Origin: Gammaproteobacteria bacterium
GTDB lineage: Bacteria; Pseudomonadota; Gammaproteobacteria; QZLD01
Assembly (NCBI GenBank): GCA_033852075.1
Contig: JAWSVC010000014.1
Span: 113-64,112, forward strand
Length of the DNA: 64,000 nt
Reading direction: 5' to 3'
The notes beneath the pieces were generated by a model. It saw only the letters and a program-made list of their open reading frames with translations. It did not search any database and was not told where the DNA came from. The position numbers were made by a program, and so were the translations under genes. Positions 7,709 through 34,051 of the stretch are shown here, in pieces. Within the stretch, counting starts at the first letter, position 1. Every line of letters begins with the position of its first letter.

Positions 7709-8394
7709 ACCTGGCGCTTATCTTTATTATAACTAACAGAGGCATTACCGGCAGACACCACTGCATTCTTAACCACACCAATAGGCCCTTGCACAATATA
7801 ACGGGTTAACTGCTCTGTTTGCATCATATCTCTGGCATACCAATATTGCCGGATAATCAGCATTACATAACACAATGCTCCAACTACCAAACCGGCAACG
7901 GTGGTACTAAAGACAATAATAAGTTCCTGAGACATCATCCCCAAATTACCCTGAGAGATGCTCATCAGGGCTGGTCCCATCGGGATCAATGTACCCATTA
8001 GCCCCAACATTGGTCCAATGCGCAATCCGATACGGATACGCGCCAGACGCTTTGCTGCATTAAACTCGATCTCCTGCAACACTTGTTCAAGCAATATTGC
8101 TTCACAGTGAGTTTTTTGCTTTGCCATAATCAATGAAGTTTGCTGCAATAAATACGGAGCGGCAATAGATGAAAGTAATTGGTTAAGGGAAATACGGGAA
8201 GCAGGGGCAGATTTACAAAAATCGCTCAATTGCTGATTCCATATATATCGATTAGTTCGTCGCTCTAACCACTCACGCAAAAACATACCAATTTCATACA
8301 GTGACCATAGCAATGCCAATAAAAGCCCAGTTATAACCGGAACCTTTAATGCTGCGGTGATGGTATAGAGAATAGATGTAACTTGCTCAATCAT
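7705..8394 (-). CDS. MotA/TolQ/ExbB-family proton channel protein (229 aa).
   Basis: Three TM helices with ExbB-like motifs (GPMLGLMGTLIPMGPAL and VFSTTVAGLVVGAL). Overlaps the CobN-like stop. Confidence 0.7.
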   Translation of the reverse strand: MIEQVTSILYTITAALKVPVITGLLLALLWSLYEIGMFLREWLERRTNRYIWNQQLSDFCKSAPASRISLNQLLSSIAAPYLLQQTSLIMAKQKTHCEAILLEQVLQEIEFNAAKRLARIRIGLRIGPMLGLMGTLIPMGPALMSISQGNLGMMSQELIIVFSTTVAGLVVGALCYVMLIIRQYWYARDMMQTEQLTRYIVQGPIGVVKNAVVSAGNASVSYNKDKRQV

Positions 8395-11300: not shown

Positions 11301-12472
11301 GATTTATCAGCTTCCCGGTCATAAATAACCAGTGCTATTTTTTTATTTTTATTAGATTTACGCCGCAGTTGTATCCAGCGTTTTGCGCGCCCGGCAATCC
11401 GGCGAATACGATCTGGGATTGGAATAATCTCTTCCCCGCTATCGTGACCGGTTTCGGTTCCACCAGCCGCCAGCGTTTCAGTGCCACCCTTCATCTCTGC
11501 CGATACAATTTGATGGAACTGCTGCGATTTCGACATGCCGGTCTGGTTGCTTTTGCGCCACTCATCTATTGACTCTTCGGTAAACCACATTGCATGCAGA
11601 CGTGGCACATCCAGTTTTTTCCAAAAATCCGGGCGCTCACGGGTATGTGAGTTCATAATCACCAGATCCGGTTTGAATGTTTCCAGTCGCTCTCGAAACT
11701 TTGGATCATCTGCAATAAAACTAACGGCCAGAATTTTCTGTTCGTGCAACTCATTAATGATTGCTTCTACCACACGAGGCTGATGAAACAGGACATGATG
11801 CCGCCATGTTCCCAATGCCACTCGAGGTGCATCTTGCAGATTCCACCCAGCCTTTTCAGCTTGCTGTAAAAATTGATCGACGGTTTCAAAATCACCATAT
11901 TGAGGGTGCCAGATCCTAACAACCTGTTCAGTAGGCGGAGGATTGATCTCACCCGGACGATTAAACCAGGTAATCAGCGCATAGCGTACCATCTCTTTCA
12001 TTGCTTCTCGTGACAAACCGTAATAGGACGCCATCTGTGGATCGCGCAGCATGTTCTCTGCGCCAATCCATTCCGCCCAGTTATTACATATCGGGCCAGG
12101 ACCAACACAAACCACTTTCAGCTGTGAACGTTTTTTCTTGGCGGTAACTACAGCCTGACGATATTGGTCTTTTAATTGACCTGAAGCAAATGAGGTTATT
12201 ATCAGATCAAATTTAGCCAAATCGGGCAACTTATCACGTCGAAACAGGTCAATCTTAAGTTTTGTAACTGTGACGTTCAGTTCATCCTGATAATCAGCCA
12301 TAGCATCAACCGCGCCACCTGCCATACCGATAACCCCAATGACAATTTTTTTCTCTGCCGGGGAGTTTTTTCTTTCTATCAAAGTATTATCAGCATCTGC
12401 TGCGTGCGCAATCTGAACCACATAGCTCAGCAAAAATATGGCTACTGGAATTAACCGAAAGATTATTTTCAT
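8387..12472 (-). CDS. CobN/Mg-chelatase-family large subunit homolog (1361 aa). It is exported (signal peptide) and has a C-terminal TM anchor. It resembles the HmuS type of TonB-receptor-associated (de)chelatases.
   Basis: Size is typical of CobN/ChlH. The conserved CobN motif ADALVHFGTHGSEWLYEGK is present. N-terminal signal MKIIFRLIPVAIFLLSYVVQIAHAADA. C-terminal TM LTLIVVIIIAILLIAVGFY. Confidence 0.75.
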   Translation of the reverse strand: MKIIFRLIPVAIFLLSYVVQIAHAADADNTLIERKNSPAEKKIVIGVIGMAGGAVDAMADYQDELNVTVTKLKIDLFRRDKLPDLAKFDLIITSFASGQLKDQYRQAVVTAKKKRSQLKVVCVGPGPICNNWAEWIGAENMLRDPQMASYYGLSREAMKEMVRYALITWFNRPGEINPPPTEQVVRIWHPQYGDFETVDQFLQQAEKAGWNLQDAPRVALGTWRHHVLFHQPRVVEAIINELHEQKILAVSFIADDPKFRERLETFKPDLVIMNSHTRERPDFWKKLDVPRLHAMWFTEESIDEWRKSNQTGMSKSQQFHQIVSAEMKGGTETLAAGGTETGHDSGEEIIPIPDRIRRIAGRAKRWIQLRRKSNKNKKIALVIYDREADKSGLMSGPAHNLNAPRSMIKFLDEMKKAGYTINNAPSSSEELVTQMMDHGRQMGEWEPAQIDRIARSGHAVLIPEEQYQQWFEEYIPQWRRDQVLEQWGAIPGKIMVWEDKGKRYLVLPKLDLGNVILFTQPLKGETLTASMKVQDTRESLLPPTHHYLASYFWLQHGFNADALVHFGTHGSEWLYEGKMAVMSRSDWSDIFLGDLPNINPWLTSNTSELLPSKRRAHAVHIGFIPPPLMDAGLPDELVNLEIDIHRYQQLGIGFLKKRFARAVTEQTIATGMDRDLNLSLGADDLMTEEQIEQLSLHLHDLMNAQVPAGMHILGEPPSDELLVPYLVSGLGKRFLNSLKQLYDEDEEEMDIFFLKEKGREILKSVLQENLTFAQAVEQSDGEVPAAGLPEAFVEGLEVAVEMNSGLQQTHYEIDNVFAALEGRFILPGPSGSPERNPAVVPSGRNLYILNPEELPSKASWDLAKKLIDQHLADEFEIKGQYPQKIAFSLIPFATYSDFGIIESQILYLMGVRPVWDAKNRVRDVELIPAEELGRPRIDVFLSARSVYRDELPTMMHLLDRAIRLAASQKEPDNYVYQHSEATRKQLESEGIAKQRALALSQARMFGAKPEEIIDSHNWFFYLTERSGEWESREELVELFLKYNKHVYTEGIWGENAPEVFDQALSGTETIMRSWYDNRDFVLSNKFAWWVDGTLSLAIKQMSGNEPQLLFVDVRNTDEAKLVDSTTAARQDLLIRVVNPNWIKAMMKEGYAGGNILAKNLDNMMGWEIMREQTFSDANWDNVADVYVRDSQNLDIREWFDKTNPHAFQKLAVTMLETIRKGYWQADEATRLEIAAAYAESVAKHGRASGVREGGNEKLEQFIDKTLSAPNSPKLNQILEQYQQRSAELTDIAPGKASNEPIQGKKLEKKNAQQPQEKPVQYSSFFQSHLTLIVVIIIAILLIAVGFYHQGKKQRIKDVADD

Positions 12473-12497
12473 CAGATCCCTTTATGTCACGATTAGA

Positions 12498-14525
12498 TTA
12501 AAGTTTGAAACTAATTGAACTATTAACCAATAACCCTGGCGCCTCTGCCGGAACCGGAGGTACACTGTAGATGTCATAGTTATCATCAAGCAGGTTTTCA
12601 AAACTTAGTGTCCAGGATGATGATGAATTAATATCACCGGAAAATGCTAAATCCAGAGAAATATACTCATCCCTGACTCCTGCCTCATCGTTATCATAAT
12701 CATCATAACGGTCACCTTCATAACGGGCATTCAAATCAATAACTATCCAATCAAACGCCTGAACATTGATTCCAATATTTGCCTTATGTTTTGGAACAAA
12801 CGGTAAATAATTACCAACTATGCCGCTGTCGGTATCATCTTCAGTCACAGTTGAACGATTGTAAGTATAACTTGTACGCAGCTCCCAACCAGGAACAAAT
12901 TCCCAGATTAATTCCGCATCAGTACCATACACCTTAACCCCGGTAATATTGTCAGCCTGACTTTCAAAGGCTGACAAAGTACGATATCCAATAAAATCTT
13001 CACTACGCGTATAATATGTGGCTGCCCGCACCATTAGATCTTTTGTGAAAAAGTGATCTACACCAATTTCTGTAGACCATGCCTTTTCAGGTTCAAGATT
13101 TGGATTACCGTAAAGCAAAGATGGGCCGCGCGAGAATACGGTATAAAGTTGAAATAATGTCGGCGCAGCAAATGATCTACCAATCGATGCACGCAAGGTA
13201 GTTTTTTCCCCCCAGCGATCAACCAGTGAAAGTTTTGGGTTTACTGCAGACCAGGAGCGATCTTCATACTCAATATCCACAGCCGGTCTTCCCATCCCCG
13301 GATTGGTATCGATACTTTTACCATCACTGCTCTGAGAGTAATCGATTCTAAAACCAGGTGTAAAAATCAGCTTATGGTTGGCATAGGCATAGCTCATCTC
13401 ATCCTGTGCAAACAATGAAACTAACAGCTGTTTACCTTCCGCAGTAGCATCACGATCTGCAACATAATCGTTATCCTTATTCATGTAGGTGATACTGGAA
13501 TCAAAGCCTACTGACAACAGATGATTCCTTCCTAACTCAGTATTAAGCTGGAAAAGTTGTCCATATTTTGTTGCATCATCATTTTCCGTATGATCATGAG
13601 TATCATATGTTGGTCTGGCGGAAAGAATAACCTCTCGCTGCAGCGAATTTATATACCCCAATAGAGATATATCCATGCTGTCATTAAGCCATCTTTCATA
13701 GGAAGCGGTTAACAGCGTTGTGCGATTAATCTGGTCGGTAAGTAAAATACCACGGCTATAATCTTCATTTACGTAGTTAAAACCAAGTGAGAATGAGGAA
13801 TCATCATCGATATCTACAGTATATTTACCAAGCATACTGGCATCGGAACGTTCATTTGCAACGTAATAGGGTTGCTCTTCAATAGCCTGAACATAGCCCC
13901 CGGTTTTGTATGCCTTTCCTCCAAGAACATAACCATGCTTTCCAGATTGCGCACCGCTATAAGCAGAAGTTGTAAAGGTATTTAAACTACCATAACCCAG
14001 TTTGAAAATACCGCCATTAATCTTATCAGGACTTTTGGTTATAATATTAATCACCCCTCCCATAGCGCCAGAACCATAAAGGGCTGACATTGGCCCACGC
14101 ACAATCTCGATGCGATCCACCATCTCTTTTGGAATCATTGACCAGTTAACCGATCCTCCCTGACCATCATTAAATGGTATACCATCAACCAATACCAAGG
14201 TTCTGCTTTGATCTTGAATGCCACGCAAGGTAATATCTCGCCCCGGCCCGCACTCGGCAATATGAGTTCTGGAATGGGAAACACTGGAAATACGCTTTAA
14301 ATAATCGTCAATAGTAACTTCTGCTGCCTGTTCCAAATCTTCACCAGACACCACAGTCACCATAGCCGGAGCTTCTACCCAGGCAGACTCCCTTCTGTTG
14401 GCAGTAACCACAACACCACCAATCTCGTCATATGAATCTGTTGCAAAACTAGCAGAGGGGATTGGAAGAAGAGTAATAGATGCCAGGAACAAGGCACACT
14501 TATGATTAAAAGAGAGGAAACACAT
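12498..14525 (-). CDS. TonB-dependent outer-membrane receptor (675 aa).
   Basis: Signal peptide. TonB-box-like DEIGGVVVTANR. Plug-domain motifs (RGPMSALYGSGAMGGVINIITK). C-terminal residue F (..SISFKL). Confidence 0.85.
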   Translation of the reverse strand: MCFLSFNHKCALFLASITLLPIPSASFATDSYDEIGGVVVTANRRESAWVEAPAMVTVVSGEDLEQAAEVTIDDYLKRISSVSHSRTHIAECGPGRDITLRGIQDQSRTLVLVDGIPFNDGQGGSVNWSMIPKEMVDRIEIVRGPMSALYGSGAMGGVINIITKSPDKINGGIFKLGYGSLNTFTTSAYSGAQSGKHGYVLGGKAYKTGGYVQAIEEQPYYVANERSDASMLGKYTVDIDDDSSFSLGFNYVNEDYSRGILLTDQINRTTLLTASYERWLNDSMDISLLGYINSLQREVILSARPTYDTHDHTENDDATKYGQLFQLNTELGRNHLLSVGFDSSITYMNKDNDYVADRDATAEGKQLLVSLFAQDEMSYAYANHKLIFTPGFRIDYSQSSDGKSIDTNPGMGRPAVDIEYEDRSWSAVNPKLSLVDRWGEKTTLRASIGRSFAAPTLFQLYTVFSRGPSLLYGNPNLEPEKAWSTEIGVDHFFTKDLMVRAATYYTRSEDFIGYRTLSAFESQADNITGVKVYGTDAELIWEFVPGWELRTSYTYNRSTVTEDDTDSGIVGNYLPFVPKHKANIGINVQAFDWIVIDLNARYEGDRYDDYDNDEAGVRDEYISLDLAFSGDINSSSSWTLSFENLLDDNYDIYSVPPVPAEAPGLLVNSSISFKL

Positions 14526-20086: not shown

Positions 20087-21322
20087 CTAAAGAACGATAC
20101 GCTCAAGCAATGAGGATGAACTGTTTCCTTGCCCTTGTACCTTATAGGTTTCCATAACCAAAGATGAATCATTAACATCAACTATTACATAGTTCAATAC
20201 ATCTTCATATTTGTGAATTGTGGCGTTCGAAGAAATATCTTCTATCTGAATAATCGGGCTACCACCACCACCGCTTAATATGTAATGGATACCATTCATT
20301 TCCAGATGCTGATAATCATGATCGTGCCCTTCAAAAACAGCTTTTACACCATATTGTTCAAACAAAGGACGAAGATTATTTACCAGAACCGGATTATCAC
20401 CCCAGGAAGAAGCTGAATGAACAGGTACATGCAGTGAAACAAAGATATGATCTATATCAATGTCTGCTGCGGCATTTTGCAGGTCAGACTGAATAAAGTT
20501 ATATTGCGACGTTCCCGGTAACAGTAAATCATAGCTGTCATTGTTACTGGTGTATTTTCCGGTGTTTATCACCAAGATATGCACGTTGCCATAATTGTAT
20601 GAATAATAAGCAAAGTCACCGCTATTACCAGAACTCATAAGGTAACTGTCAAAATAGGTATTTCCAGTACCATTGCCATCTGAAAATTCATGATTCCCAT
20701 AAGTAGGCACAAGAGGATGATTACGTAAAAGATCCTTTTCAACATCGAAAAAGTTAATTACGTCATCCATATCTGTTCCATCAAGTGCAAAATCACCAAC
20801 ATGCAAAACAAAATCAGGAGATTTAGAGGCCATGCTCTGGCATACAGGAAGATGATCGTCATTATCACCATAAGCAGCTACAATATCCTCATACCATGCG
20901 GCTTCACGGGTATCCCCGTAAACAGCAAAACGGAAAGGAAGACGACTTCCCTTTGGAAGCGCAGTTACAAATGAGCCAACCGGACTGGTTGTTCCATCGG
21001 ACGTAACCGTATAGTAATACCGGGTATTGGTACTTAAACCGGAAAGTGTCATCTTTCTGATCTTACCGGAAGAGATCTGATGAGTAACATAATTACTCAT
21101 ATTTGAATTTAAAGAAACCTTAAGGGTTGCAGAATCAGAATTGTACGTTTCAAATGCTATTCCAACAGAATCCGATGTTAATTGCTGCAATAGCGGATAA
21201 ACACGAAATCCAGTTTCCGGGTCATCCCCCCCTGCAAATGCTGAAGATGAAATAATAAAAAAAAAGGGTAGTAAAGAATATTTTAGAAAACGATTGAGAT
21301 TTGGCATTACCTTCAACTCCAT
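20087..21322 (-). CDS. Secreted calcineurin-like metallophosphoesterase of the purple-acid-phosphatase type (411 aa).
   Basis: Signal peptide. Metallophosphatase motifs GDTRE, HVGDFALDG, GNHEF and GHDHDYQH. Confidence 0.7.
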   Translation of the reverse strand: MELKVMPNLNRFLKYSLLPFFFIISSSAFAGGDDPETGFRVYPLLQQLTSDSVGIAFETYNSDSATLKVSLNSNMSNYVTHQISSGKIRKMTLSGLSTNTRYYYTVTSDGTTSPVGSFVTALPKGSRLPFRFAVYGDTREAAWYEDIVAAYGDNDDHLPVCQSMASKSPDFVLHVGDFALDGTDMDDVINFFDVEKDLLRNHPLVPTYGNHEFSDGNGTGNTYFDSYLMSSGNSGDFAYYSYNYGNVHILVINTGKYTSNNDSYDLLLPGTSQYNFIQSDLQNAAADIDIDHIFVSLHVPVHSASSWGDNPVLVNNLRPLFEQYGVKAVFEGHDHDYQHLEMNGIHYILSGGGGSPIIQIEDISSNATIHKYEDVLNYVIVDVNDSSLVMETYKVQGQGNSSSSLLERIVL

Positions 21323-21540
21323 GATTAATTAACCATAACCAGATATCTACTTAACTTGTTCTCAGAAAAAACAAAATTATGAAATAAATAACATGGCAAA
21401 TAGTAATAATTAATTATGAATCTAATGTTACACAAAAATTAAATAATACAATTAGCTAAAAAACCGCAAGCATCTATTGATACAATCAACAGCCATTGCT
21501 CGCAATACCCTAACCCCAGTAAAAATGTACCGGTCAAGTC

Positions 21541-21728
21541 TAACCGGACATAAATGCTTTACACACCTAAAATACATCAATCCAAATATTAAGGTAATTG
21601 TGTTAACCGGATTCTTACAGCAACAATATCTTGATGAGTTGATTAAAGCCGGAGTATGTGGGTACATCTCAAAACCTTATCGAATTGAAGATCTGAGCAA
21701 AATGATTAATCATGTTATTTCTACTTAG
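21541..21728 (+). pseudogene. Orphan 3'-terminal fragment of a hybrid-HK gene homologous to the 4648-7137 gene (copy 2 of the direct repeat). It has no upstream gene body.
   Basis: Encodes only the last ~60 residues of the receiver domain. The upstream sequence is AT-rich non-coding. Differences from copy 1 are mostly synonymous or conservative. Confidence 0.7.
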
Positions 21729-22671
21729 CCGGATCGATTATTCTTATTTCATTGAGTTTTTTGCTTAGGCGTTTGATAAACTGATAATACTGTTGCTTTT
21801 GTAGTAAGGTATTATCCGATTTGATAGATTGTAATTGTGCAAGAAAACGGGATGCTTCACCTTGGGCGCGTGAGATTTGTTGGTGTTTGTAGGAGCTGGC
21901 TTCCTGTTGGATATTATTAGCGTACTCCCTGGCTTCCGGAATCGCCCGGTTTTTAAAGGCATGAGCTATATTTAGAGCCTTTTTGCGCTCCTGCCTTGCC
22001 TGGATGACATCGTCAAAATAGCGTTGCGTTTGTTTAGGTGGTGCAATTTCGCGTATCTCTACAAAGGCTATTCTTATGCCTGAATCAAACTGGTTTAGCT
22101 TTTGTTGCAGTAGTTGCTTTACCCCATCCTCTATTCTTTTTTTACCTGTGGTTAAAACATCGTCAACATTGGTTTTTGATATTAATTTCAGTACACTTGA
22201 AGCGGTAAAACCTTTTATTAGCAACTCAGTATCGCGGGTTGAAATCAGGTATTTATCCGGGCTGATGACATTGTATTTAATCAGCAGGTTGGCATTTACG
22301 ATATTGTTGTCGCCAGTAATGCAGTATGTTGTTAGGTTGGATGACTTGATGTAATTATGTGCGCGGGAGCCAAATTCCCATCCTGAACTGGCAAAGTCGT
22401 CGACTATGATAGAGCGGACGTTTTTGGAGTCGATTCTGGTAACCTGGTCAGTAGGTGTTGGTAGGGCATAATGTAAGCCGGGTTGTACATTAGGATCAAT
22501 TATTTTACCGAATCGTTGCTGTACGCCGATTTGACTTGGGTCTATGTAGTAAAATCCGGTGGCAAAATAGATAACTATCAATACACAAATTACTAGACCT
22601 GCATAATGCACCAGCTGTTTTTGTAACGATTTAAGATTTGCAGGGTTATCATTTGGGGTATTACGACTCAT
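21721..22671 (-). CDS. SPFH/band-7 protein, HflK-like (316 aa).
   Basis: N-terminal TM, then SPFH core YYIDPSQIGVQQRFGKI...GLHYALP. The C-terminal coiled coil resembles HflK. One-nt overlap (ATGA) with the upstream gene. Confidence 0.7.
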   Translation of the reverse strand: MSRNTPNDNPANLKSLQKQLVHYAGLVICVLIVIYFATGFYYIDPSQIGVQQRFGKIIDPNVQPGLHYALPTPTDQVTRIDSKNVRSIIVDDFASSGWEFGSRAHNYIKSSNLTTYCITGDNNIVNANLLIKYNVISPDKYLISTRDTELLIKGFTASSVLKLISKTNVDDVLTTGKKRIEDGVKQLLQQKLNQFDSGIRIAFVEIREIAPPKQTQRYFDDVIQARQERKKALNIAHAFKNRAIPEAREYANNIQQEASSYKHQQISRAQGEASRFLAQLQSIKSDNTLLQKQQYYQFIKRLSKKLNEIRIIDPAK

Positions 22672-23570
22672 TATTGATTACCATTTTTATTCGATTTTTC
22701 CAGGTCGTTGGTCAGGTATTTCATCAAGTCGGATTCAGTAGATAGCAATAATGTTGATTTTTCATCAAAGATCGATTCATATGCCTCTAATGAGCGGATA
22801 AATTCAAAGTAGTCCTGGTCCTGGCTATATGCCTGAGCGTATATCTTTAGTGCTTCCTTATCAGCCTCTCCCTTGATAATCAGAGATTGCTTTTCCGCAG
22901 TCGCTTTGATTTCCTGTGCCTGTCTTTTGGCTTCAGCTACAATTTTACCGGCGTCTTCTCTCCCTTCTGCGCGTATTTTTTCTGCTTCCATCTCTCGTTC
23001 TGCCTTCATGCGCTCATAAACCGATTTCATAACTACGGCAGGATAGGAGAGACGGATAATGCCAATGTGTTCGATGCTAACGCCGTATTTTGTTACGGCG
23101 CTTTGGTTTGATGTTGCTATTAGTTCTTGTTCAATCATATCTATCTTAACTTGTGACGGATCGCTGTTGATGATTTGATGGATGGAGTAATCGCTGAAAA
23201 CAATTCCAAGTTGGGAATTAATCATGTCGCTGATTTTTTGTCTGCCATTATCGATGTTTTGTAGTGATTGAAAAAATACGACAGGATCTTTGATCTTCCA
23301 GGCGATAAAACAGCTGGTTATTATTGGATTTTTATCCCCCAAAAGAAGCTGGATTGGTTGGGTATCGATCTGTTGCAGACGTTTGTCAAAACGGTTTACC
23401 TTATTTATAAAACCAGGCATCTTAAAGTGCAATCCAGGCTGGTCAATGGTGCGAACCGACTTTCCGAACTGGGTTACAATTCCCCATTCCCGCTCATCTA
23501 TTGAGAATGTTGAAGTTACTGATAAACTTGCTGTTAGCAGAATTAAGATGCTAATCACGAATAGGCGCAC
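22671..23570 (-). CDS. SPFH/band-7 protein, HflC-like (299 aa).
   Basis: The C-terminal region YERMKAEREMEAEKIRAEGRE...DYFEFIRSLEAYESIF aligns closely with E. coli HflC (YNRMRAEREAVARRHRSQGQE...DFYAFIRSLRAYENSF). Confidence 0.75.
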   Translation of the reverse strand: MRLFVISILILLTASLSVTSTFSIDEREWGIVTQFGKSVRTIDQPGLHFKMPGFINKVNRFDKRLQQIDTQPIQLLLGDKNPIITSCFIAWKIKDPVVFFQSLQNIDNGRQKISDMINSQLGIVFSDYSIHQIINSDPSQVKIDMIEQELIATSNQSAVTKYGVSIEHIGIIRLSYPAVVMKSVYERMKAEREMEAEKIRAEGREDAGKIVAEAKRQAQEIKATAEKQSLIIKGEADKEALKIYAQAYSQDQDYFEFIRSLEAYESIFDEKSTLLLSTESDLMKYLTNDLEKSNKNGNQ

Positions 23571-25347
23571 GGCGTTTTACCTCTTTTGGTTCTGGGCTTA
23601 CTTCTGGAAGTTTTTGCTCTTGTTGTTGTTTGTTTATTTGCCGGTACAGGAAACGTTCCTTATATAGCAGGTATGTGGATATACCGGAACTTGGCTCGTA
23701 AATGATCTTTTCGCCTTCGCTGATGGATTTAACCTGAGCAGTGAGCTGCATATGCTTAGTGATTATTTGGGGATATTGCCGGTATGAGTCAAGTTGGAGC
23801 AAATAATTCTGGGATTCTCCCTGGGCAAGCTGAATCTTGCTGTTACTTTCTGATTGCGCCTGTGATATCAGTTGCGATGAGTTTAATTTTGCATCGGGTA
23901 TCATCACATTGTGTTTTACCTTGGCCTGATTAATCATGGTTTCTCTGGTTTGAGTAGCTGCGACAAGTTGTTCAAATGATATTGCTACATTTGCAGGAGG
24001 GTGAAAATCTTTTAGATCCAGCCTTACAATCTCCAGTCCGCTTTTTAATTGATCTAACTGTGATTGAATATTTGTGGTTACCTGGTCTACCCACTTTTTG
24101 CGTTTATACAGTGCAAGATCATAAAACTCATTGCGCGTAAAAGTAGCTATTAGTTCTTGCATGCATATCTGAGATGCAAGCTGTTCGGGATTGGTGGTGT
24201 TTAAGAAAAAGTTTTCTACGTCATTAATCCGGTAATGTAATGAGATATAAGGTTGGAAGAAGTTATTATCGGCAGACATAAATTCAAGTTTGTCTCCGTG
24301 TGATTTTCCCCAGATCAGGGCGATGTTTTTATCGCTGATATTTCCAACCTCTATGGTTTTTACCTGACCACTGTTGATCTTATTTGCTTTATCTATAGGC
24401 CATGGCCACTTGAAATATAACCCCGGAGATAATGTGGTCCCAGGATTAATAATGCGGCCAAACCTGGTAATAACAGCTTGTTGATTAATCTCAATCTGTA
24501 CCAGCGAGGTAGAAAGCCAAAATACCACTGCAGCAGTTGTTGCAAGAGCCAAGCCTGCTTTAAGTATTTTTCTGGAAGTGTTTACGATGGATGCCAAGTC
24601 GTTTCTTTTATCAGGATGTAGATCAAAGATATCGCAAAACCATGTGCCGACTTTATTGCCAAGATGGCGATCGAATAGGGAGAAAAGCATGGTGGTGATT
24701 CGATATTCTGTCAAATAGCCATGTTTATGTTTTGTCATAGAAAGCAGCGTGTTTATGCCTGTCTCTACGGCGAAGAGTAATATCATTAGTCCAATTACAC
24801 CACCGATGTATTTATCAACATTGATTCCGAAGTTGTAGATAATCAGCGAAAAACCGGTAAGTAGTGATATCACCATATCGGTGCGGTTGTGCTGGCTATC
24901 AGCCTTTAGTGCAGCTGAGTTTTCTGTTTCTGCGGTTATTGCCTCGAATCGGTAGATGAAAAATGAACCAAAGGAAAGCAGGATAAAGATCATCCCGGTT
25001 ATAAGAGGGTTATCAACAGTTACCGGTTCGCTGGAGAGGATACGTAAAAATATTGATAGCGCGATGATGAAAAGCCAAATACTTATGAGCATGGCGATTA
25101 TCAGCTCAGGGTCTTTCCAGTTATGACGGGGGTTATGAGATGTGTTGTTAGAGTATTCTGTACTACGTCGGTTGCTTAGCCAGATTGTAAATACAACCAA
25201 TGCGGTAGTGGTGATATCGGAGAAGCTATGCCAAGCCTCGGAGAAAACTGCAAGGCTTCCAGAAAGCCAGTAAGCAAAAAACTTAATGACTGTTAGCAGG
25301 GTAATTATTGCAAGGCTTATTATTCCAGCCCTAAGTTTATTTGGCAT
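23551..25347 (-). CDS. Fusion protein (598 aa). An N-terminal cation-diffusion-facilitator-like 6-TM domain is followed by an extra TM and an HflK-like SPFH domain with a long coiled-coil tail.
   Basis: CDF TM2-type motif YWLSGSLAVFSEAWHSFSDI and TM5-type SQHNRTDMV. SPFH core EINQQAVITRFGRIINPGTTLSPGLYFKWPWP. Overlaps the downstream HflC-like gene by 20 nt. Confidence 0.6.
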   Translation of the reverse strand: MPNKLRAGIISLAIITLLTVIKFFAYWLSGSLAVFSEAWHSFSDITTTALVVFTIWLSNRRSTEYSNNTSHNPRHNWKDPELIIAMLISIWLFIIALSIFLRILSSEPVTVDNPLITGMIFILLSFGSFFIYRFEAITAETENSAALKADSQHNRTDMVISLLTGFSLIIYNFGINVDKYIGGVIGLMILLFAVETGINTLLSMTKHKHGYLTEYRITTMLFSLFDRHLGNKVGTWFCDIFDLHPDKRNDLASIVNTSRKILKAGLALATTAAVVFWLSTSLVQIEINQQAVITRFGRIINPGTTLSPGLYFKWPWPIDKANKINSGQVKTIEVGNISDKNIALIWGKSHGDKLEFMSADNNFFQPYISLHYRINDVENFFLNTTNPEQLASQICMQELIATFTRNEFYDLALYKRKKWVDQVTTNIQSQLDQLKSGLEIVRLDLKDFHPPANVAISFEQLVAATQTRETMINQAKVKHNVMIPDAKLNSSQLISQAQSESNSKIQLAQGESQNYLLQLDSYRQYPQIITKHMQLTAQVKSISEGEKIIYEPSSGISTYLLYKERFLYRQINKQQQEQKLPEVSPEPKEVKRRAPIRD

Positions 25348-25666
25348 ATGTTTGCATCGAAGTAAAAAACAAAAATAGGTATAACCTTTTTTCTTTGTTC
25401 AAGAAAAATTGAAAGTTATGCAACTATCTTATCTAAAGAAATAATTTCAACAGAAAAACATTACAAACAGGTGACAATAACGCAAAGTAATAAAATTATG
25501 ATAAAGCGTTTCATGATTATTTAATAAAGATTTAACCAGATTGTAACGATCTGTTATCAAAATCCTTTGCTTGAAACTTGTAGCTTTAATATTTATTTGG
25601 TTCGTCTTTATTAATTATTGTTGCAGGTTAATCCCCTTTTTGAGGCTTAATTTTTAGGAGAGTAAT

Positions 25667-27376
25667 ATGAGACGTTTAATTTCTGTATGCGCTATTACAG
25701 CCGCTGCTATGATTGCATCGCCTGTAGTGAGCGCTGCTAATAGTGATAGTTTAAGACAGAGCAAGAAGGTTAAGAATGTAATCTTTATGATACCTGATGG
25801 ATGCGATGCCAGTGTTCAGACTTTGGCGCGTTGGATGAAAGGTGAGTCACTACAGCTTGATAGCATGAACAATGGTATGGTTCGTACCGAAATGGCTAAT
25901 TCTGTTATCACCGGTTCTGCTGCTGCTTCAACTGCTTTCGCAACAGGCGAGAAAACAACTGTGCGTTTCCTTGGCGTTGCTCCTCGCACAGAAGATATGC
26001 TTTCAACTTATATCCCTCCAGTAGATAAAGAGCCATATGAGCCTATGGCGAGTATTCTTGAAGGAGCCAAACAAAAAGGTAAGGCTACCGGTTTGGTTGC
26101 AACCAGTCGTATTACTCATGCTACTCCAGCTGGTTTTGCTGTGCATATTCATGATCGAGGTATGGATAATGAGATCATGGAACATATGGTTTATCAGGAT
26201 ATCGATGTGGTATTCGGTGGTGGTAAGCGTCATCTATTGCCAAAAAGCGAAGGCGGAAAGCGTACAGATGGTGAAAACCTAGTAAATGTACTTGTTGATC
26301 GTGGTTATCAATTTGTTGAAACCAAAGATCAGCTTGAAGATCTGGAAGAAGGTAAGGCTTGGGGTATGTTCGCATCCAGTCATATGCAGGCAGATATTGA
26401 TCGTGCTGAATTTGCTCCAGAAGAGCCTTCTATTGCAGAAATGACAGCAAAGGCGATCGATCTTCTTTCTCAGGATAAAGACGGTTTCTTCCTAATGGTT
26501 GAAGGTAGTCAGGTTGATTGGGCTGGTCACGCAAATGATCCAAAATATATGTTTACTGATTTCATCGCTTTTGATGAGGCGGTAAAAGTGGCTGTTGATT
26601 TTGCTAAGATGGATGGAAACACCGTTGTTGTTGCTTTCCCGGATCACAATACAGGTGCTTTGAGTATCGGTAATGTTAATACTGATAAGACATATACTAC
26701 ATTAAGTGTTGAAGACATGATGGGACCATTGCAAGGCATGCGCATTACCGGTACTGGTTTGCAGATGAAGATTGGTAACGATCTTTCTCCTGAGAATATC
26801 ATTGCAAACATTCAAGAGTGGTGGGGAATTTCAGCCACAATGGAGGATGCTGCCGAGATTTTAGCTCATATGAATAAAGGCTGGTCTGTAGGTTATGCTA
26901 TTGGTTATGTAATCAGCAAAAACCACACAGTATTCGGTTGGACTACACATGGACACAACGCTGAAGACGTTCAGGTTTGGACTTATGGTATCAACTATCC
27001 TCTAGGTACTATCGATAATACAGATCTTGCAAAAATGGCTGCAGACATGATGCGTTTTGACCTAAAAGACATAGATGCAGAACTGTTTATTGAAGTAAGT
27101 GAAGCTTTCAGTGCGGATGAGTGGGAGCTGGATGCAATCACAGATCCGGAAAACCCTGTTCTTCACATCAAGGACGCAGTTCTTCCTGTATCAAAAGACT
27201 TAGTTATTCAGGGCGATAAAACCACAGAGATGGAAGGTATAGTTGTATATTCTCCAATGAGCGATAAGGTTTATATCCCTAAAGAGGCTGTTGATATAAT
27301 CAATGGTGAAGATGATGATAATGATGATTGCCAATGGCCATGGCCTTGGCTTTGTAAGATTGCTGCAAATGATTAG
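25667..27376 (+). CDS. phoA: Secreted alkaline phosphatase of the PhoA family (569 aa).
   Basis: Blocks align with E. coli PhoA: MIPDGCDAS (GDGMGDS), VITGSAAASTAFATGEKT (VTDSAASATAWSTGVKT), FFLMVEGSQVDWAGHANDP (FFLQVEGASIDKQDHAANP) and AFPDHNTG (TADHAHAS). Signal peptide present. Confidence 0.8.
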   Translation: MRRLISVCAITAAAMIASPVVSAANSDSLRQSKKVKNVIFMIPDGCDASVQTLARWMKGESLQLDSMNNGMVRTEMANSVITGSAAASTAFATGEKTTVRFLGVAPRTEDMLSTYIPPVDKEPYEPMASILEGAKQKGKATGLVATSRITHATPAGFAVHIHDRGMDNEIMEHMVYQDIDVVFGGGKRHLLPKSEGGKRTDGENLVNVLVDRGYQFVETKDQLEDLEEGKAWGMFASSHMQADIDRAEFAPEEPSIAEMTAKAIDLLSQDKDGFFLMVEGSQVDWAGHANDPKYMFTDFIAFDEAVKVAVDFAKMDGNTVVVAFPDHNTGALSIGNVNTDKTYTTLSVEDMMGPLQGMRITGTGLQMKIGNDLSPENIIANIQEWWGISATMEDAAEILAHMNKGWSVGYAIGYVISKNHTVFGWTTHGHNAEDVQVWTYGINYPLGTIDNTDLAKMAADMMRFDLKDIDAELFIEVSEAFSADEWELDAITDPENPVLHIKDAVLPVSKDLVIQGDKTTEMEGIVVYSPMSDKVYIPKEAVDIINGEDDDNDDCQWPWPWLCKIAAND

Positions 27377-28999: not shown

Positions 29000-31900
29000 T
29001 TGCAATTTCAGGGATATAGTGTTGATGGCATTGTAGACAGCAGTGACAGTACTATTGTCTATAGAGCCAGAAGCGGTGACGGGGATGAAAAAATTATCAT
29101 CAAAGTGACTGCAAAGGAGTATCCTTCAGAATCTGAACTTTCAAGATACAGACATGAATATGAGGTGCTCAAATCAGTAAGTATTGACGGAGTTGTTGAT
29201 ATTGTTGATCTGAAAAGCAGCAATAAGGGACTTGCTCTTTTTTTTAAGGATTTTGGTGGAACATCACTATCCACATTGATAAAGACAGACACCTTTCCTC
29301 TTATGGAAAAACTATCAATAATGAGGAAAGTTACTGATATTGTCGGAAGAATTCATGAAAACAAAATAATTCACAAGGATATAAATCCATCAAACATAAT
29401 ATACAACCGCAAGGACTCTATTCTTAAAATTATCGATTTTGGTATCGCTGATAAGTTAACTTCATCTCAGGATGCATCAATTTCAAGCAGCAGCTTTGAA
29501 GGAACTCTTGCCTATATGGCTCCTGAACAGACCGGAAGAATAAACAGAAAAACTGATTACAGATCAGACCTCTATTCTTTAGGTGCGACTTTTTATGAAA
29601 TACTTACCGGAAATCCACCATTTGTTTCAGATGATCCAATGGAGTTTATCCATTCACATATTGCCAAAACGCCTATTCCCCCTGTGAAATTCAACGAGGA
29701 TATTCCAGACGTTGTATCTGCTATTGTAATGAAGCTTTTGTCAAAGGATCCTGAAGACAGATATCAGAGTGCTGCAGGACTTTCTTTAGATTTTCAGAAT
29801 GTAATTAAAGCACTGGAAGAGAATGGGGCAGCAGATTTCTTTACTCTGGCTGAGAGAGATATTTCTACAGTTTTAAATATTCCTTCAAAGTTATATGGCA
29901 GAGAAAAACAGATTTCTTTGTTAATGAATGTGTTTGAAAGAGTATCAGAAGGACGAAGTGAAATAGTTCTTGTAAATGGATATGCCGGTGTTGGTAAAAG
30001 TTCACTGGTAATGGAGATTCACAAACCGGTAGTTAAGCACAGAGGCTATTTTATACAGGGTAAATTTGATCAGTATAAAAGAGATGTTCCATACTCTTCA
30101 TTTATTTCTGCTTTCAAGGAAATGATCAGACTCATTATGGTGGAGAGTGAGGAGAATATTGATTTCTGGAAAGAGAAAATTCTATCTGCAGTTGGAGTGA
30201 ATGGAAAGGTTATTCTTGAGGTTATTCCTGAACTGGAAAGTATAATAGGGCTTCAGCCGGAAATTCCTGACCTTCCACCTGAAGAATCAAAGAACAGATT
30301 TAAGTACACTTTCAAAAATTTTGTAAAGGCTATTTCAACAAAGGAGCACCCTCTTGTCATATTTTTTGATGATCTGCAGTGGGCTGATTCTGCTTCTCTG
30401 GAACTTATTCATCTTCTTACAACGGATAGCGATCTGGGGTATGCTTTAATTATAGGAGCATCAAGAGAAGAAGATCTGAATAGATCAGAAAGTACTAATA
30501 CCCTGAAGGAAATAGCTAAAGATGGTGGGGTAATTACAGAGATAAAACTGACTCCTCTTGAAATAAGGGATGTTGTAAATCTGCTGTCTGATACTGTTCA
30601 ATGTGATAAAAAAAATGTTACTGACCTTGCTGAACTTTGTTATAAAAAAACCGCAGGTAATCCGTTTTTTCTGAATCAATTCATAAATATGCTTTATGAA
30701 GAAGATCTGATCCACCTTAATATATCTCTGAGAGAATGGAAATGGAATCTGAAAAACATTATGTCCGCCAACTTTACGGACAATGTTATAGATTTCATGA
30801 TTCAGAAAATCGGGAAGGTTGATTCTGAGGCTCAGGAAATGCTTAAAAAGGCAGCTTGTATAAGTAGTGAATTTGATCTGAAAATGCTCTCTATTGTGGC
30901 TGAAAAGTCTGAAATTGATGTGGCAGAAAGCTTATGGCAATGTATGTCAGAAGGGCTGATCCTTCCTGTTAGGGGTGTTTTTACAATATCAGCTCTTCAG
31001 AATATTGATATTAATTTTGAAAATGCACCTGTCTACAAGTTTGTACATGACAGGGTGATGCAGGCAGCATATTCAATGATTGCTGAAGAAAAGAGAAAAG
31101 AGCTGCATCTTAAAATTTTCAGATTAATGAATGAACGTATTTCAACAGATGTATTTGATGAAAAACTTTTTGATATAGTAAATCAGTTGAATTACTGCAG
31201 AGAACTAATTGATGAAGATGATGAAAGATACTTATCTGCATCAATCTACCTTAAAGCCGGAATCAAAGCAAAAAGTTCAGCTGCCTATAATACAGCCAGA
31301 AACTGTTTTACATCTGCTGTTTCTTTATTAAATAAAAAAGACTGGGAACAGAAATATGAACTTACCAGAGATGTCTATCTGGCGGCGGCAGAAGCAGAGT
31401 ATCTCTGCACAGACCTTGAGAGTATGGAAAATCTGGTAAGTACCTTTCTTGAAAATGCAAAAACAAAGATGGATATAGTTAAGATCTATGAAGTCAGAGT
31501 AAGAGGCAAGATTGCATCCGGAGACAGGATGGATGCTATAAAAGATGGCATAGATATTTTAAAAAAACTTGGTGTTAAACTGAAACTTCATCCTACAAAG
31601 CTTGATGTTCTTTTTGCACTGATTAAAACAAGAATAAGTTTTATGTTATCAGGTAAAAGTCTTGAGAATCCAATTGAAATGACAGATTCCGATAAACTGG
31701 CAACTATGAAATTCTTCTCTCTTGTAGGGCCTTCAGCATATGTTGTTGAACCAAACTTAACGCCATTAATCATTCTTAAGCTGGCTGAATTTTCTGTAAG
31801 ATATGGGCAGTCCAGATTTTCAGCTTTTGCTCATGTGACTTATGGTTATCTTTTAACAGCATATATTGGTGACTTGGAAAATGGGTACAAGGAAGGCGTA

Positions 31901-34051
31901 AGAGGTCTTGAGGTTGCGGATAAGTATGATGTAAAAGGAATGTTTGCAAAATCAAGAATGCTTTTCGGTTGTTACATCCAGCACTACAGACACCATGCGA
32001 AAGATGCAATTCCTATTCTCTTTGAAGGATATTATAAAGGATTGGATGCAGGTGATTTTGAGTTTGCTGCATACGATATTCTTATCTATCTGTTTAATAG
32101 TTTTGTAACTGGAAAAAACCTAGATGAACTCAGGGCAGAAATTAATAAATATGAAAAGGAAGTTTACCAGATAAAGCAGACTGTTCAGCTCAGATGGATA
32201 AGAATTTATCACCAGATGTCTATTTATCTTATTGATGGTCCTCATAAAAGCGGAAATTTTGAAGGGAGCGTTTTTAAAGAGAGTGAAATGCTTCCTGATA
32301 CTAATGAAGATAAGGATAAAACTGCAGTTTTTAATCTTCTTTCAAGTAAAATGATAGTAAATTTTATTTATGATAAATTGGAAATTGCCCAGCAAAACGG
32401 AGAAGAAGCAGAAAAAAATCTTCATTATGTAATCGGTTCTTTTGATTATCTTCTGTTTCCATTTAACTATTCCTATGTACTACTGGGGATGTATGAATCT
32501 GTTGACGATAAAAGGAAGAAAGAAATTTTAAGAAAAGTTAAAAAATATCAGAAGAAGGCAAAACCAATTATAAAAAGTGCACCTGAAAACTATCTTCATA
32601 AATACAGGCTTGTTGAAGCGCTTCTTGCTGATATTTCAGGAGATATTTTAAAAGCTATAAATCTTTTTGATGAAGCGATAAAACTGGCTGGGGAAAATGG
32701 ATTTATCATGGATGAGGCTGTTGCCAACGAGTTTGCTGCCAAATTCTATGTAAAAAGAGGAAAAGAAAAAACTGCTAAAATATATTTTACAGATGCATTT
32801 TATCTATACAGAACCTGGGGAGCTGTTGCCAAGTCGGAAAAAATAATAAGAGATCATAAGGATTTTATACTTTTGGATATGCCGTCTTCCTTCTCAAATT
32901 CATACAGAACAACTATAACTCACTTTTGCGCAGATACAACAATACCAGATGCTTCAGCAACTCTTGATTTCAAGTCTCTTTTAAAAGCTTCCATGACTGT
33001 TTCCATGGAGATTGTTCTGGATAAACTTCTCGAGAATCTTATGAGAATTATTGTTGAAAATGCAGGAGCACAGAATGGGGTTCTCATTTTAAAAAATGGT
33101 AAAAAATTTCTAGTGGAATCTGAATGGGGCTTCGAGGATAATTCTGTAAAAGTTCTTAGATCTATTCATCTGGATGAATATCAAAATATTCCCAAAAGTA
33201 TAGTTAACTATGTAATAAGATCAAAAGAATCTGTTGTCCTTGATAACGCTGCTGAACATAACAAATATTCTAATGATGAATACATTAAAAAGTATTCGCC
33301 AAAATCAGTTGTATGTGCACCTTTAATTAAAAAGGGCGAAATTACAGGTGTTTATTATCTGGAAAATAATGCTGTAGCTAATAGTTTTACTCAGGATAGG
33401 CTGGAAGTTTTAAATATACTTAGTTCTCAGGCTGCAATTTCAATTGAAAATGCCTATCTTTATCATTCTCTGGAAGATACAAATAAAAATCTGGAACAGA
33501 AAGTAAAAGAGAGGACAATGGAGCTTTCTGATGCATATGAAAAAATCAAGCATCTTGCAATGGTTGATTCTCTTACAGGACTTCCCAACAGAAGAAATAT
33601 TCTCGAGAAAATAGAACATGAAAAAGTTCGCGGTCAAAGATCCCAAAAGCCATTCTCAGTTATTATTGGAGATATTGACTTCTTCAAAAAATTCAATGAT
33701 ACCTATGGTCATGACTGCGGAGATTTTGTTCTTAAAAAAGTTGCAGATACTATTAAGAAATCTCTTAGAAAACAGGATTATGTAGCTAGATGGGGTGGAG
33801 AAGAGTTTCTTTTAATTCTTCCTGAAACCGATGGCTCAGGCTCTGTAGTTGCTGCTGAACAGGTTAGAAAAAGTGTTGAAGAGAGCAATTTAATCTATAA
33901 GGATGTTCCTCTTAATATCACAATGACATTCGGAACTTCCACTTTTAACTTTGGTGATGATTTTGAAGAGAAGCTAAAAGCTGCAGACGAAGCTCTTTAT
34001 GAAGGAAAAGAGAGCGGCAGAAACAGAGTTGTCCTTAGTTCTTCTAATTAG
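29000..34051 (+). CDS. Giant multidomain signalling protein (1683 aa). Domain order: Ser/Thr protein kinase, AAA_16-type NTPase, TPR-like helical array, GAF, GGDEF diguanylate cyclase. A TTG start follows a strong SD (AAGGAG 9 nt upstream).
   Basis: Kinase motifs HKDINPSNII, DFGIA and APEQ. Walker A GYAGVGKSS. GGDEF motif RWGGEEF with DHD in ...DTYGHDCGDF. Arg codons are predominantly AGA/AGG, whereas core genes here use CGT/CGC. Confidence 0.8.
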   Translation: MQFQGYSVDGIVDSSDSTIVYRARSGDGDEKIIIKVTAKEYPSESELSRYRHEYEVLKSVSIDGVVDIVDLKSSNKGLALFFKDFGGTSLSTLIKTDTFPLMEKLSIMRKVTDIVGRIHENKIIHKDINPSNIIYNRKDSILKIIDFGIADKLTSSQDASISSSSFEGTLAYMAPEQTGRINRKTDYRSDLYSLGATFYEILTGNPPFVSDDPMEFIHSHIAKTPIPPVKFNEDIPDVVSAIVMKLLSKDPEDRYQSAAGLSLDFQNVIKALEENGAADFFTLAERDISTVLNIPSKLYGREKQISLLMNVFERVSEGRSEIVLVNGYAGVGKSSLVMEIHKPVVKHRGYFIQGKFDQYKRDVPYSSFISAFKEMIRLIMVESEENIDFWKEKILSAVGVNGKVILEVIPELESIIGLQPEIPDLPPEESKNRFKYTFKNFVKAISTKEHPLVIFFDDLQWADSASLELIHLLTTDSDLGYALIIGASREEDLNRSESTNTLKEIAKDGGVITEIKLTPLEIRDVVNLLSDTVQCDKKNVTDLAELCYKKTAGNPFFLNQFINMLYEEDLIHLNISLREWKWNLKNIMSANFTDNVIDFMIQKIGKVDSEAQEMLKKAACISSEFDLKMLSIVAEKSEIDVAESLWQCMSEGLILPVRGVFTISALQNIDINFENAPVYKFVHDRVMQAAYSMIAEEKRKELHLKIFRLMNERISTDVFDEKLFDIVNQLNYCRELIDEDDERYLSASIYLKAGIKAKSSAAYNTARNCFTSAVSLLNKKDWEQKYELTRDVYLAAAEAEYLCTDLESMENLVSTFLENAKTKMDIVKIYEVRVRGKIASGDRMDAIKDGIDILKKLGVKLKLHPTKLDVLFALIKTRISFMLSGKSLENPIEMTDSDKLATMKFFSLVGPSAYVVEPNLTPLIILKLAEFSVRYGQSRFSAFAHVTYGYLLTAYIGDLENGYKEGVRGLEVADKYDVKGMFAKSRMLFGCYIQHYRHHAKDAIPILFEGYYKGLDAGDFEFAAYDILIYLFNSFVTGKNLDELRAEINKYEKEVYQIKQTVQLRWIRIYHQMSIYLIDGPHKSGNFEGSVFKESEMLPDTNEDKDKTAVFNLLSSKMIVNFIYDKLEIAQQNGEEAEKNLHYVIGSFDYLLFPFNYSYVLLGMYESVDDKRKKEILRKVKKYQKKAKPIIKSAPENYLHKYRLVEALLADISGDILKAINLFDEAIKLAGENGFIMDEAVANEFAAKFYVKRGKEKTAKIYFTDAFYLYRTWGAVAKSEKIIRDHKDFILLDMPSSFSNSYRTTITHFCADTTIPDASATLDFKSLLKASMTVSMEIVLDKLLENLMRIIVENAGAQNGVLILKNGKKFLVESEWGFEDNSVKVLRSIHLDEYQNIPKSIVNYVIRSKESVVLDNAAEHNKYSNDEYIKKYSPKSVVCAPLIKKGEITGVYYLENNAVANSFTQDRLEVLNILSSQAAISIENAYLYHSLEDTNKNLEQKVKERTMELSDAYEKIKHLAMVDSLTGLPNRRNILEKIEHEKVRGQRSQKPFSVIIGDIDFFKKFNDTYGHDCGDFVLKKVADTIKKSLRKQDYVARWGGEEFLLILPETDGSGSVVAAEQVRKSVEESNLIYKDVPLNITMTFGTSTFNFGDDFEEKLKAADEALYEGKESGRNRVVLSSSN

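Follow-up and report, generated by a model that had tools for sequence, protein, structure and literature searches.

An operon joining a cation diffusion facilitator-HflK fusion to HflC- and HflK-like SPFH proteins, and its recurrence beside exported phosphoesterases

The stretch of DNA analysed here, which we refer to as the window, comprises 64,000 nucleotides (nt) from a Gammaproteobacteria bacterium (assembly GCA_033852075.1, contig JAWSVC010000014.1, positions 113 to 64,112), and it contains a triad of consecutive genes, designated F, C, and K, that all encode SPFH proteins and the first of which additionally encodes the membrane domain of a cation diffusion facilitator (CDF). The coordinates of the genes, which a preliminary description of this DNA had read as three consecutive minus-strand open reading frames (ORFs) with overlaps of 20 nt and 1 nt, match the ORF listing exactly (table 1). 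F and C share the 20 nt at 23551-23570, C and K share 1 nt within the TAATG at 22671, and a Shine-Dalgarno-like AGAGG lies 9 nt 5' of the GTG of gene C. The operon is divergent from a phoA-type gene matching PF00245, as had also been described, and is separated from it by an intergenic region of 319 bp. Across the homologous loci described later, the usual junction between the genes of the triad is a 4-nt overlap, and six-frame searches with hidden Markov models (HMMs) found the order F-C-K in 70 of the 74 loci that were fetched; the remaining four end at a contig edge, and the order holds in all 70 loci long enough to judge. F-C-K is a conserved, translationally coupled three-gene operon.

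Table 1. Coordinates in the window of the triad genes, of the parts of F, and of the neighboring phosphatase genes
Feature	Position	Strand	Remarks
Gene F	23551-25347	(-)	598 aa; ATG start; CDF membrane domain fused to HflK-like SPFH
CDF six-helix membrane domain, F aa 1-203	24739-25347	(-)	PF01545, hydropathy, positive-inside pattern
Transport-site codon H40	25228-25230	(-)	
Transport-site codon D44	25216-25218	(-)	
Transport-site codon H153	24889-24891	(-)	
Transport-site codon D157	24877-24879	(-)	
Cytosolic linker, F aa 204-261	24565-24738	(-)	57 aa; replaces the usual CDF C-terminal domain
Seventh transmembrane helix, F aa 262-284	24496-24564	(-)	hydrophobic stretch 260-285; equivalent of the HflK anchor
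Periplasmic HflK-like SPFH1/2, coiled coil, and C-terminal region, F aa 285-598	23554-24495	(-)	
Gene C	22671-23570	(-)	299 aa; GTG start; HflC-like SPFH
Gene K	21721-22671	(-)	316 aa; ATG start; HflK-like SPFH
PhoA-family alkaline phosphatase	25667-27376	(+)	569 aa; exported, signal peptide; PF00245, E value 1.9e-78
Divergent intergenic region, triad/alkaline phosphatase	25348-25666		319 bp
Purple-acid-phosphatase-like metallophosphoesterase	20087-21322	(-)	411 aa; exported; PF00149 and PF16656 (Pur_ac_phosph_N)

The N-terminal part of F had been described as a six-helix CDF-like membrane domain with the metal-site motifs HSFSD and HNRTD, a reading that would have failed had the domain not resembled CDF models. 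The Pfam model PF01545 (Cation_efflux) matches F residues 9-203 over nearly its full length (profile positions 2-196 of 198) with an E value of 8.7e-20 and 71.8 bits against a cutoff of 26.6, and both motifs are present, HSFSD at residues 40-44 and HNRTD at residues 153-157; the transport site is intact. These residues form the pattern of the tetrahedral site A (H40-x3-D44 together with H153-x3-D157), and in a profile built from the CDF part of 14 family members H40, D44, H153, and D157 align with D45, D49, H153, and D157 of Escherichia coli YiiP. The best match of this profile is E. coli FieF/YiiP (E value 9.4e-12), with weaker matches to ZnT1, ZnT4, and ZnT8. No match to ZT_dimer (PF16916), the cytoplasmic C-terminal domain of CDF proteins, was obtained in F with Pfam, and TIGR01297 aligns over model positions 3-196 of 285 with a score of 78.4 bits, just below its cutoff of 82.35. 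Among NCBIfam models, the CDF domain of F scores best with those for FieF, MamM/MamB, and MntE and not with ZitB. A magnetosome-type CDF was considered and rejected, as MamM and MamB reach only 43 and 36 bits against cutoffs of 350 bits, no mam genes are among the 25 commonest neighbor families of the triad, and the taxa that carry it are not specifically magnetotactic.

The linker that follows the CDF domain contains nine Lys or Arg residues and consists of short helices only in an AlphaFold2 model of F (predicted local distance difference test score, pLDDT, 63-71 in the linker and 80.9 on average over the model). The seventh helix aligns with the transmembrane helix of E. coli HflK (residues 82-100), and what comes after it bears out the earlier reading of an HflK-like SPFH domain and coiled coil: Band_7 (PF01145) matches F residues 284-476 in Pfam (E value 8.9e-21), and a phmmer search of solved structures aligned F residues 267-555 with residues 82-348 of E. 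coli HflK, an alignment that starts at the membrane anchor and reaches the C-terminal region. F falls below the cutoff of the HflK model TIGR01933 (111.0 vs. 159.4 bits). Hydropathy and charge together give a positive-inside topology of seven helices with the N-terminus inside and the C-terminus outside; because the six CDF helices start with the N-terminus inside and are followed by a cytosolic linker and a seventh helix, the remainder of the protein is placed in the periplasm, as in HflK. A Foldseek search of the PDB with the model of F retrieved HflK (7vhq_E, 8e-17) and the membrane domain of YiiP (8f6k_B, 2e-6), and other SPFH cage subunits were also among the matches.

Gene C and gene K merit the labels HflC-like and HflK-like that they had been given, in that both pass the NCBIfam equivalog cutoffs (C with 190.1 bits against 134.4 for TIGR01932 HflC, K with 171.9 bits against 159.4 for TIGR01933 HflK). 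The best solved relative of C is E. coli HflC (7vhp_G, 1.2e-38), and that of K is E. coli HflK (3.5e-33), which aligns in two pieces flanking an insertion. According to hydropathy each has a single N-terminal transmembrane helix (C aa 3-21, K aa 20-38), and F, C, and K all possess an N-in membrane anchor of the HflK/C type followed by a periplasmic SPFH domain, a coiled coil, and a C-terminal domain. The three proteins fall into separate orthologous groups. F is a second K-type paralog, because it is 26% identical to K over 265 aa and hardly resembles C. Relative to E. coli HflK, F contains an insertion of approximately 18 aa in SPFH1 (about aa 336-356, window ~24280-24342), and that of K is approximately 24 aa long (residues ~89-116, window ~22324-22407) and holds the conserved D92-F93; the two insertions occupy the same SPFH1 loop. 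The insertions could provide a surface for metal hand-off or for client binding. The triad had also been set apart from the housekeeping hflKC genes, which are found in the context of hfq-hflX, and this distinction is upheld by its neighbors in the window, an alkaline phosphatase and a metallophosphoesterase. Among the 122 upstream neighbors of the other loci no HflX-type GTPase was found, the only matches to GTPase domains being FeoB.

The fusion that had been described from the window is present in many other genomes. A search of 5.8 billion proteins identified 78 clusters at 90% identity that carry both domains (29-71% identity), and HMMER, run exhaustively over 1.84 billion representatives, identified approximately 142 clusters at 50% identity with E values of 1e-30 or less, nearly all of which are full-length fusions, with identity down to 23-25% and a distribution over several phyla. 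Because the fusion is found in many clusters and with the same gene order across loci it is not a chance event, and a chance join would produce neither a CDF part devoid of its C-terminal domain nor a linker of conserved length. When 27 members (28-73% identity) were aligned, the invariant residues of F were H40, D44, H153, and D157 together with E37 and W39 in the CDF half, and W346, H350, D447, H449, P450, and P451 in the periplasmic half; W346 and H350 sit within the SPFH1 insertion. A scan of the GTDB species genomes recovered 71 triad loci, all from metagenome-assembled genomes (MAGs). Carriers among the Desulfobacterota include Desulfobacter, Desulfosarcina, Desulfospira, Desulfatiglans, and Desulfobulbaceae, and the others belong to Planctomycetota, Acidobacteriota, SAR324, Gemmatimonadota, bins labeled Rickettsiales, and two Gammaproteobacteria; multi-megabase assemblies labeled as chromosomes are among them. 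The nearest relative of the window is locus L003 in MAG Madre6, with an F protein that is 71% identical. Two genomes encode two triads each (L009 and L045 in OY762069.1; L010 and L011 in CAXXDG010000003.1), and in a Desulfobulbaceae genome with two triads one adjoins DtxR and FeoB genes and the other a MetallophosN/C phosphoesterase gene, an arrangement that hints at sub-functionalization or different metals. Searches of the full-text literature retrieved no description of a CDF-SPFH fusion, and F-C-K is apparently an undescribed module that joins two well-known families in a new way.

To describe the surroundings of the triad, we analyzed the two nearest genes on each side in all loci with Pfam (122 upstream and 113 downstream genes), using neighbor ORFs from a simple and crude ORF caller that chose antisense frames in a number of high-GC loci and that was supplemented by tblastn and by HMM searches in six frames. 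On either side, no family is commoner than Metallophos (7 of 122 upstream and 13 of 113 downstream), and Alk_phosphatase and 5_nucleotid_C each account for 2 of 122 upstream and 3 of 113 downstream genes. As an internal control, Metallophos genes in the same loci were counted by their rank from the triad, and they occupy 17 of 234 slots at ranks 1-2, 4 of 214 at ranks 3-4, and none of 338 at rank 5 or beyond. This amounts to a roughly tenfold concentration immediately beside the triad (17 of 234 nearest slots vs. 4 of 552 farther ones; Fisher p = 1.3e-6, a value that ignores kinship and builds on crude ORF calls).

The neighboring phosphoesterases are of at least five architectures in at least seven arrangements and occur in several phyla: the purple-acid-phosphatase-like type of the window (20087-21322), the MetallophosN/C type, 5'-nucleotidase types of approximately 700 aa and approximately 1170 aa, and plain Metallophos proteins of 450-740 aa. 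Many of the Metallophos genes come directly after K in the same orientation, at a distance of 10-264 nt (10 nt in L022, 47 nt in L068, 70 nt in L029, and 77 nt in L030). The one in the window, also co-oriented with the triad, is found 398 bp downstream of it and has a signal-peptide-like N-terminus. A further family, the PhoA-type alkaline phosphatases, adjoins the triad in five genomes, being divergent upstream in the window and in L003 and directly downstream in L002, L065, and L066. The alkaline phosphatase gene and the triad are the only syntenic part of the window and L003, both flanks being different, and the intergenic region between this gene and the triad has a core of approximately 130 nt (25440-25580) that is approximately 85% conserved in the alignment of the two loci. 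All 18 Metallophos neighbors that were examined have a signal peptide or a lipobox at the N-terminus; because of these signals, the neighboring Metallophos enzymes and the alkaline phosphatase of the window are exported unfolded and have to receive their metal outside the cytoplasm. The alkaline phosphatase of the window is part of a recurrent association between the triad and exported metallophosphoesterases.

Apart from the SPFH genes, all-against-all clustering of 1031 neighbor ORFs revealed no family in more than 10 loci and hence no universal fourth gene; therefore, the triad is self-contained. FeoB is encoded near the triad in eight loci and DtxR-type regulators in 10 loci, and NUBPL-type P-loop proteins also recur as neighbors. 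A run of genes consisting of DtxR, DUF1007, NicO, and the triad is found in L015 and L016. The DUF1007 protein and the NicO-like permease form a putative Ni/Co/Zn uptake pair; with the DtxR-like regulator they are encoded immediately upstream of the triad (L015 7514-9880, L016 7690-9771), all three on its strand in L016 and the regulator on the opposite strand in L015. Directly beside the triad, ten loci of the Desulfatiglans and Acidobacteria type (L019, L025, L027, L028, L029, L032, L034, L067, L068, and L069, the last at 13667-14416) encode a secreted protein of approximately 249 aa that matches no Pfam model and is a candidate accessory or client protein. As for the metal, the residues of the transport site and the neighboring genes indicate that it could be Zn2+ or Fe2+/Mn2+. 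The HD-HD transport site is the Zn-type motif of CDF proteins, and alkaline phosphatase uses zinc; many Metallophos enzymes use Fe or Mn, and the FeoB and DtxR neighbors suggest Fe2+ or Mn2+.

On the basis of these observations, we propose that the triad encodes a CDF exporter that is caged in an SPFH assembly of the HflK/C type and supplies metal to exported phosphoesterases. We are highly confident of the architectural part of this proposal, namely that a CDF domain is tethered to an HflK-type subunit of an SPFH triad; the statement as a whole is put forward tentatively, with a probability that we would set slightly short of even. The products of the triad would form a three-component assembly of the HflK/HflC type on the periplasmic face of the inner membrane, in which C may occupy alternate positions with F and K in a ring or cage resembling that of HflK/C. 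The E. coli HflK/C cage contains 12+12 subunits. The oligomer would take the dimerizing role of the absent CDF C-terminal domain by bringing the membrane domains together, the exporter would be fixed at or inside the cage, and dilution of the bulky F by the free K subunit may help the ring to close. At the cage, the CDF domain would exchange a divalent transition metal for protons and move it from the cytoplasm to the periplasm, where the metal would be destined for Sec-exported binuclear phosphoesterases and not for bulk detoxification. In the window, the clients would be the PhoA-type alkaline phosphatase encoded divergently from the triad and the purple-acid-phosphatase-like enzyme encoded downstream of it.

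Several observations count against this proposal. A phosphoesterase is encoded within four genes of the triad in only ~28-30% of the triad loci, leaving ~70% without one, and the loci are not phylogenetically independent and their neighbor ORF calls are crude. In a reverse test, none of 48 metagenomic loci that encode relatives of the alkaline phosphatase of the window showed a triad in the available flanks, although these relatives are at most 56% identical (most of them at most 43%) and many of the contigs are short; the link therefore runs from the triad to the phosphoesterases and not in the reverse direction. The metal signals conflict, in that the HD-HD site is of the Zn type whereas the scores with FieF, MamM/MamB, and MntE and the neighbors linked to Fe or Mn point elsewhere. 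The divergent intergenic region yielded no clear match to a Pho, Zur, or Fur box; its promoter-like matches are generic only, and a Pho-box-like TTGTAAC-GAT-CTGTTAT at ~25541-25560, with 10-bp and not 11-bp spacing, is a weak lead. Rfam searches found no metal riboswitch, either in the window up to an E value of 1 or, at the gathering score, in 17 further loci. Finally, operon structure and homology are the basis for the putative co-assembly of F, C, and K and for the supposed placement of the CDF domain with respect to the cage.

The alternative that survives best is a module for metal efflux or homeostasis that exports excess Zn2+, Fe2+, or Mn2+, with the SPFH proteins acting as a scaffold for stability, gating, or turnover and with phosphoesterase neighbors that are coincidental or co-regulated. 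The intact transport site and the efflux pump FieF/YiiP as the closest solved relative are what such a module would show, the FeoB, DtxR-type, and DUF1007/NicO neighbors fit general metal homeostasis, and the majority of loci without a nearby phosphoesterase, as well as the genome in which one triad lies beside DtxR/FeoB and the other beside a phosphoesterase, sit comfortably with it; SPFH proteins are also known to bind and modulate channels, and stomatin-AQP1 (PDB 9zd2) is among the fold matches. However, efflux leaves unexplained both the concentration of exported metallophosphoesterases beside the triad and the conserved block of alkaline phosphatase and triad. Neither a P-type ATPase, an RND efflux pump, nor a MerR/ArsR regulator is among the 25 commonest neighbor families on either side, and there is no reason for a plain exporter to need three obligatory SPFH paralogs in each locus. 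We consider this explanation rather unlikely, if a serious competitor.

The proposal of a caged exporter for phosphoesterases can be taken further. F-C-K could be a periplasmic "metalation chamber", an HflK/C-type cage in or beneath which the built-in CDF exporter locally enriches a scarce metal for nascent Sec-exported phosphoesterases that are acquiring their binuclear centers, perhaps together with SecYEG and FtsH. In sulfidic sediments, thiophilic metals such as Zn2+ are all but absent in free form. If such a chamber existed, periplasmic enzymes would be loaded from the buffered cytoplasmic metal pool, and the fusion would be the first case in which covalent linkage reveals the client of a bacterial SPFH cage. 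We offer this extension as speculation and think it improbable.

A different role, to which we assign a slightly smaller probability still, would be that of a specialized HflK/C paralog that modulates FtsH, in which the CDF domain senses metal or is gated by it and so adjusts the proteolysis of membrane proteins by FtsH, instead of carrying out bulk transport. C and K not only pass the HflC and HflK equivalog cutoffs but match the E. coli proteins that cage FtsH, and FtsH is genetically tied to exoenzyme metalation in Bacillus subtilis (PMC10550928). Set against this, ftsH is not among the 25 commonest neighbor families on either side of the triad, the four transport-site residues are invariant, as transport would require, and F and K carry a family-specific SPFH1 insertion that E. 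coli HflK does not have. The concern raised earlier that the fusion might be a frameshift or misassembly of a CDF gene and hflK, or the suspicion that these are plain housekeeping hflKC genes, has a negligible chance of being correct, given full-length fusions in both cluster sets from independent assemblies, the exact reproduction of the genes of the window in an independent Logan assembly, the missing CDF C-terminal domain with a linker of conserved length, and a context other than hfq-hflX, with the exclusive origin of the known carriers in MAGs as a mild point in its favor.

An island boundary had been placed beside the operon, a claim that we do not retain: there is no step in GC content, only a strand switch and a decayed response-regulator remnant (21477-21728, plus strand, an 83-aa ORF) between the triad and the metallophosphoesterase gene. 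This ORF matches only positions 55-111 of PF00072, which is the C-terminal half of the receiver domain, stop codons are abundant in frame upstream of it, and the ORF overlaps the gene K stop at its 3' end. Farther downstream of the triad and on its strand, the region 7705-14525 encodes an ExbB-like protein (7705-8394), a CobN-like chelatase of 1361 aa (8387-12472), and a TonB-dependent receptor (12498-14525), which make up a putative outer-membrane metal-acquisition cluster. A hybrid histidine kinase encoded at 4648-7137 (plus strand) combines a PstS-like PBP_like_2 sensor with a PAS-HisKA-HATPase-REC arrangement and is a possible phosphate or anion sensor near the phosphatase genes. The region 29000-34051 (plus strand) encodes a 1683-aa protein with Ser/Thr kinase, AAA_16, GAF, and GGDEF domains, and more large signaling proteins are encoded at 44118-47645 and 47804-49474. 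In one of the other triad-carrying loci, L035, a group II intron domain (RF00029, 55 bits) at 361-441 is probably unrelated to the triad.

SPFH cages, including those of HflK/C, prohibitin, stomatin, flotillin, and erlin, have been solved by cryo-electron microscopy since 2022, and the effect that they have on the proteins enclosed in them is largely open. In a natural and widely conserved covalent fusion between a transporter and a subunit of the cage, the client is identified by the fusion itself, and it comes as a defined three-gene operon, which makes F-C-K well suited to studies of how caging affects a transporter. The domain composition of F also suggests that a CDF may dispense with its C-terminal domain once another oligomerizing module is attached. 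With respect to the metalation of periplasmic and secreted metalloenzymes in bacteria, the TerC work of 2023 is reportedly among the first mechanistic entries, and the triad offers a connection, open to testing, between a CDF exporter and the way in which exported phosphatases gain their metal. If our proposal is correct, exoenzyme metalation would extend to another transporter family, to the Gram-negative periplasm, and to organisms of anoxic sediments, and the triad would be a bacterial mirror of the eukaryotic pathway from ZnT5-6/ZnT7 to TNAP.

The known system closest to the triad in its SPFH part is HflK/HflC of E. coli (PDB 7vhp, 7wi3, 9cz2), in which, as in the triad, a single anchor precedes the periplasmic SPFH1/2 domains, the coiled coil, and the C-terminal region and the genes are adjacent and coupled. 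The triad differs from it in having three subunits in place of two, including two K-type paralogs, in the six-helix transporter at the N-terminus of F, in the SPFH1 insertion of 18-24 aa in F and K, in a C protein that is approximately 35 aa shorter than HflC, and in a context that is not hfq-hflX-hflK-hflC. In its transporter part, F matches the six-helix domain of YiiP/FieF (PDB 2qfi, 3h90, 5vrf) over its full length, and the transport sites align residue for residue; however, the first residue of the site in F is His (HD-HD, as in ZnT8) and not Asp, E37 and W39 are extra invariant residues, and the six helices of F are succeeded by a seventh one and by the SPFH domain in the periplasm. Because F has no cytoplasmic C-terminal domain, it also has neither sites B and C of YiiP nor the usual dimer interface. 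A relay from YiiP to a periplasmic metallochaperone (YiiP-PmcY) has been described in Pseudomonas aeruginosa (PMC13231896).

With regard to function, the vertebrate CDF proteins ZnT5-ZnT6 and ZnT7 load zinc on the alkaline phosphatase TNAP (PMC3799634) and thus export metal into the compartment in which a secreted alkaline phosphatase folds, which resembles the genetic linkage of the triad to an alkaline phosphatase. In contrast to the triad, these proteins are eukaryotic, act in the early secretory pathway, have no SPFH partner, and keep their C-terminal domains, and the link of the triad is one of gene neighborhood only. In B. subtilis, exoenzymes receive their metal from the TerC exporters MeeF and MeeY, which were co-purified with SecYEG, with FtsH, and with two SPFH proteins, FloT and FloA (PMC10550928). 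This system shares with the one proposed for the triad an exporter for Sec-exported enzymes that works alongside SPFH scaffolds, whereas the transporter is a TerC protein and not a CDF, the association is non-covalent and involves flotillins instead of HflK/C, and the metal is manganese. Lastly, stomatin with AQP1 or ASIC channels and QmcA with YbbJ (PDB 9zd2, 8z5g; PMC3433786), which are among the fold matches, also pair an SPFH oligomer with a membrane transport protein or a dedicated partner. In these pairs the client is a separate polypeptide, whereas in F the transporter is contained within the SPFH subunit itself, which fixes both its stoichiometry and its location.

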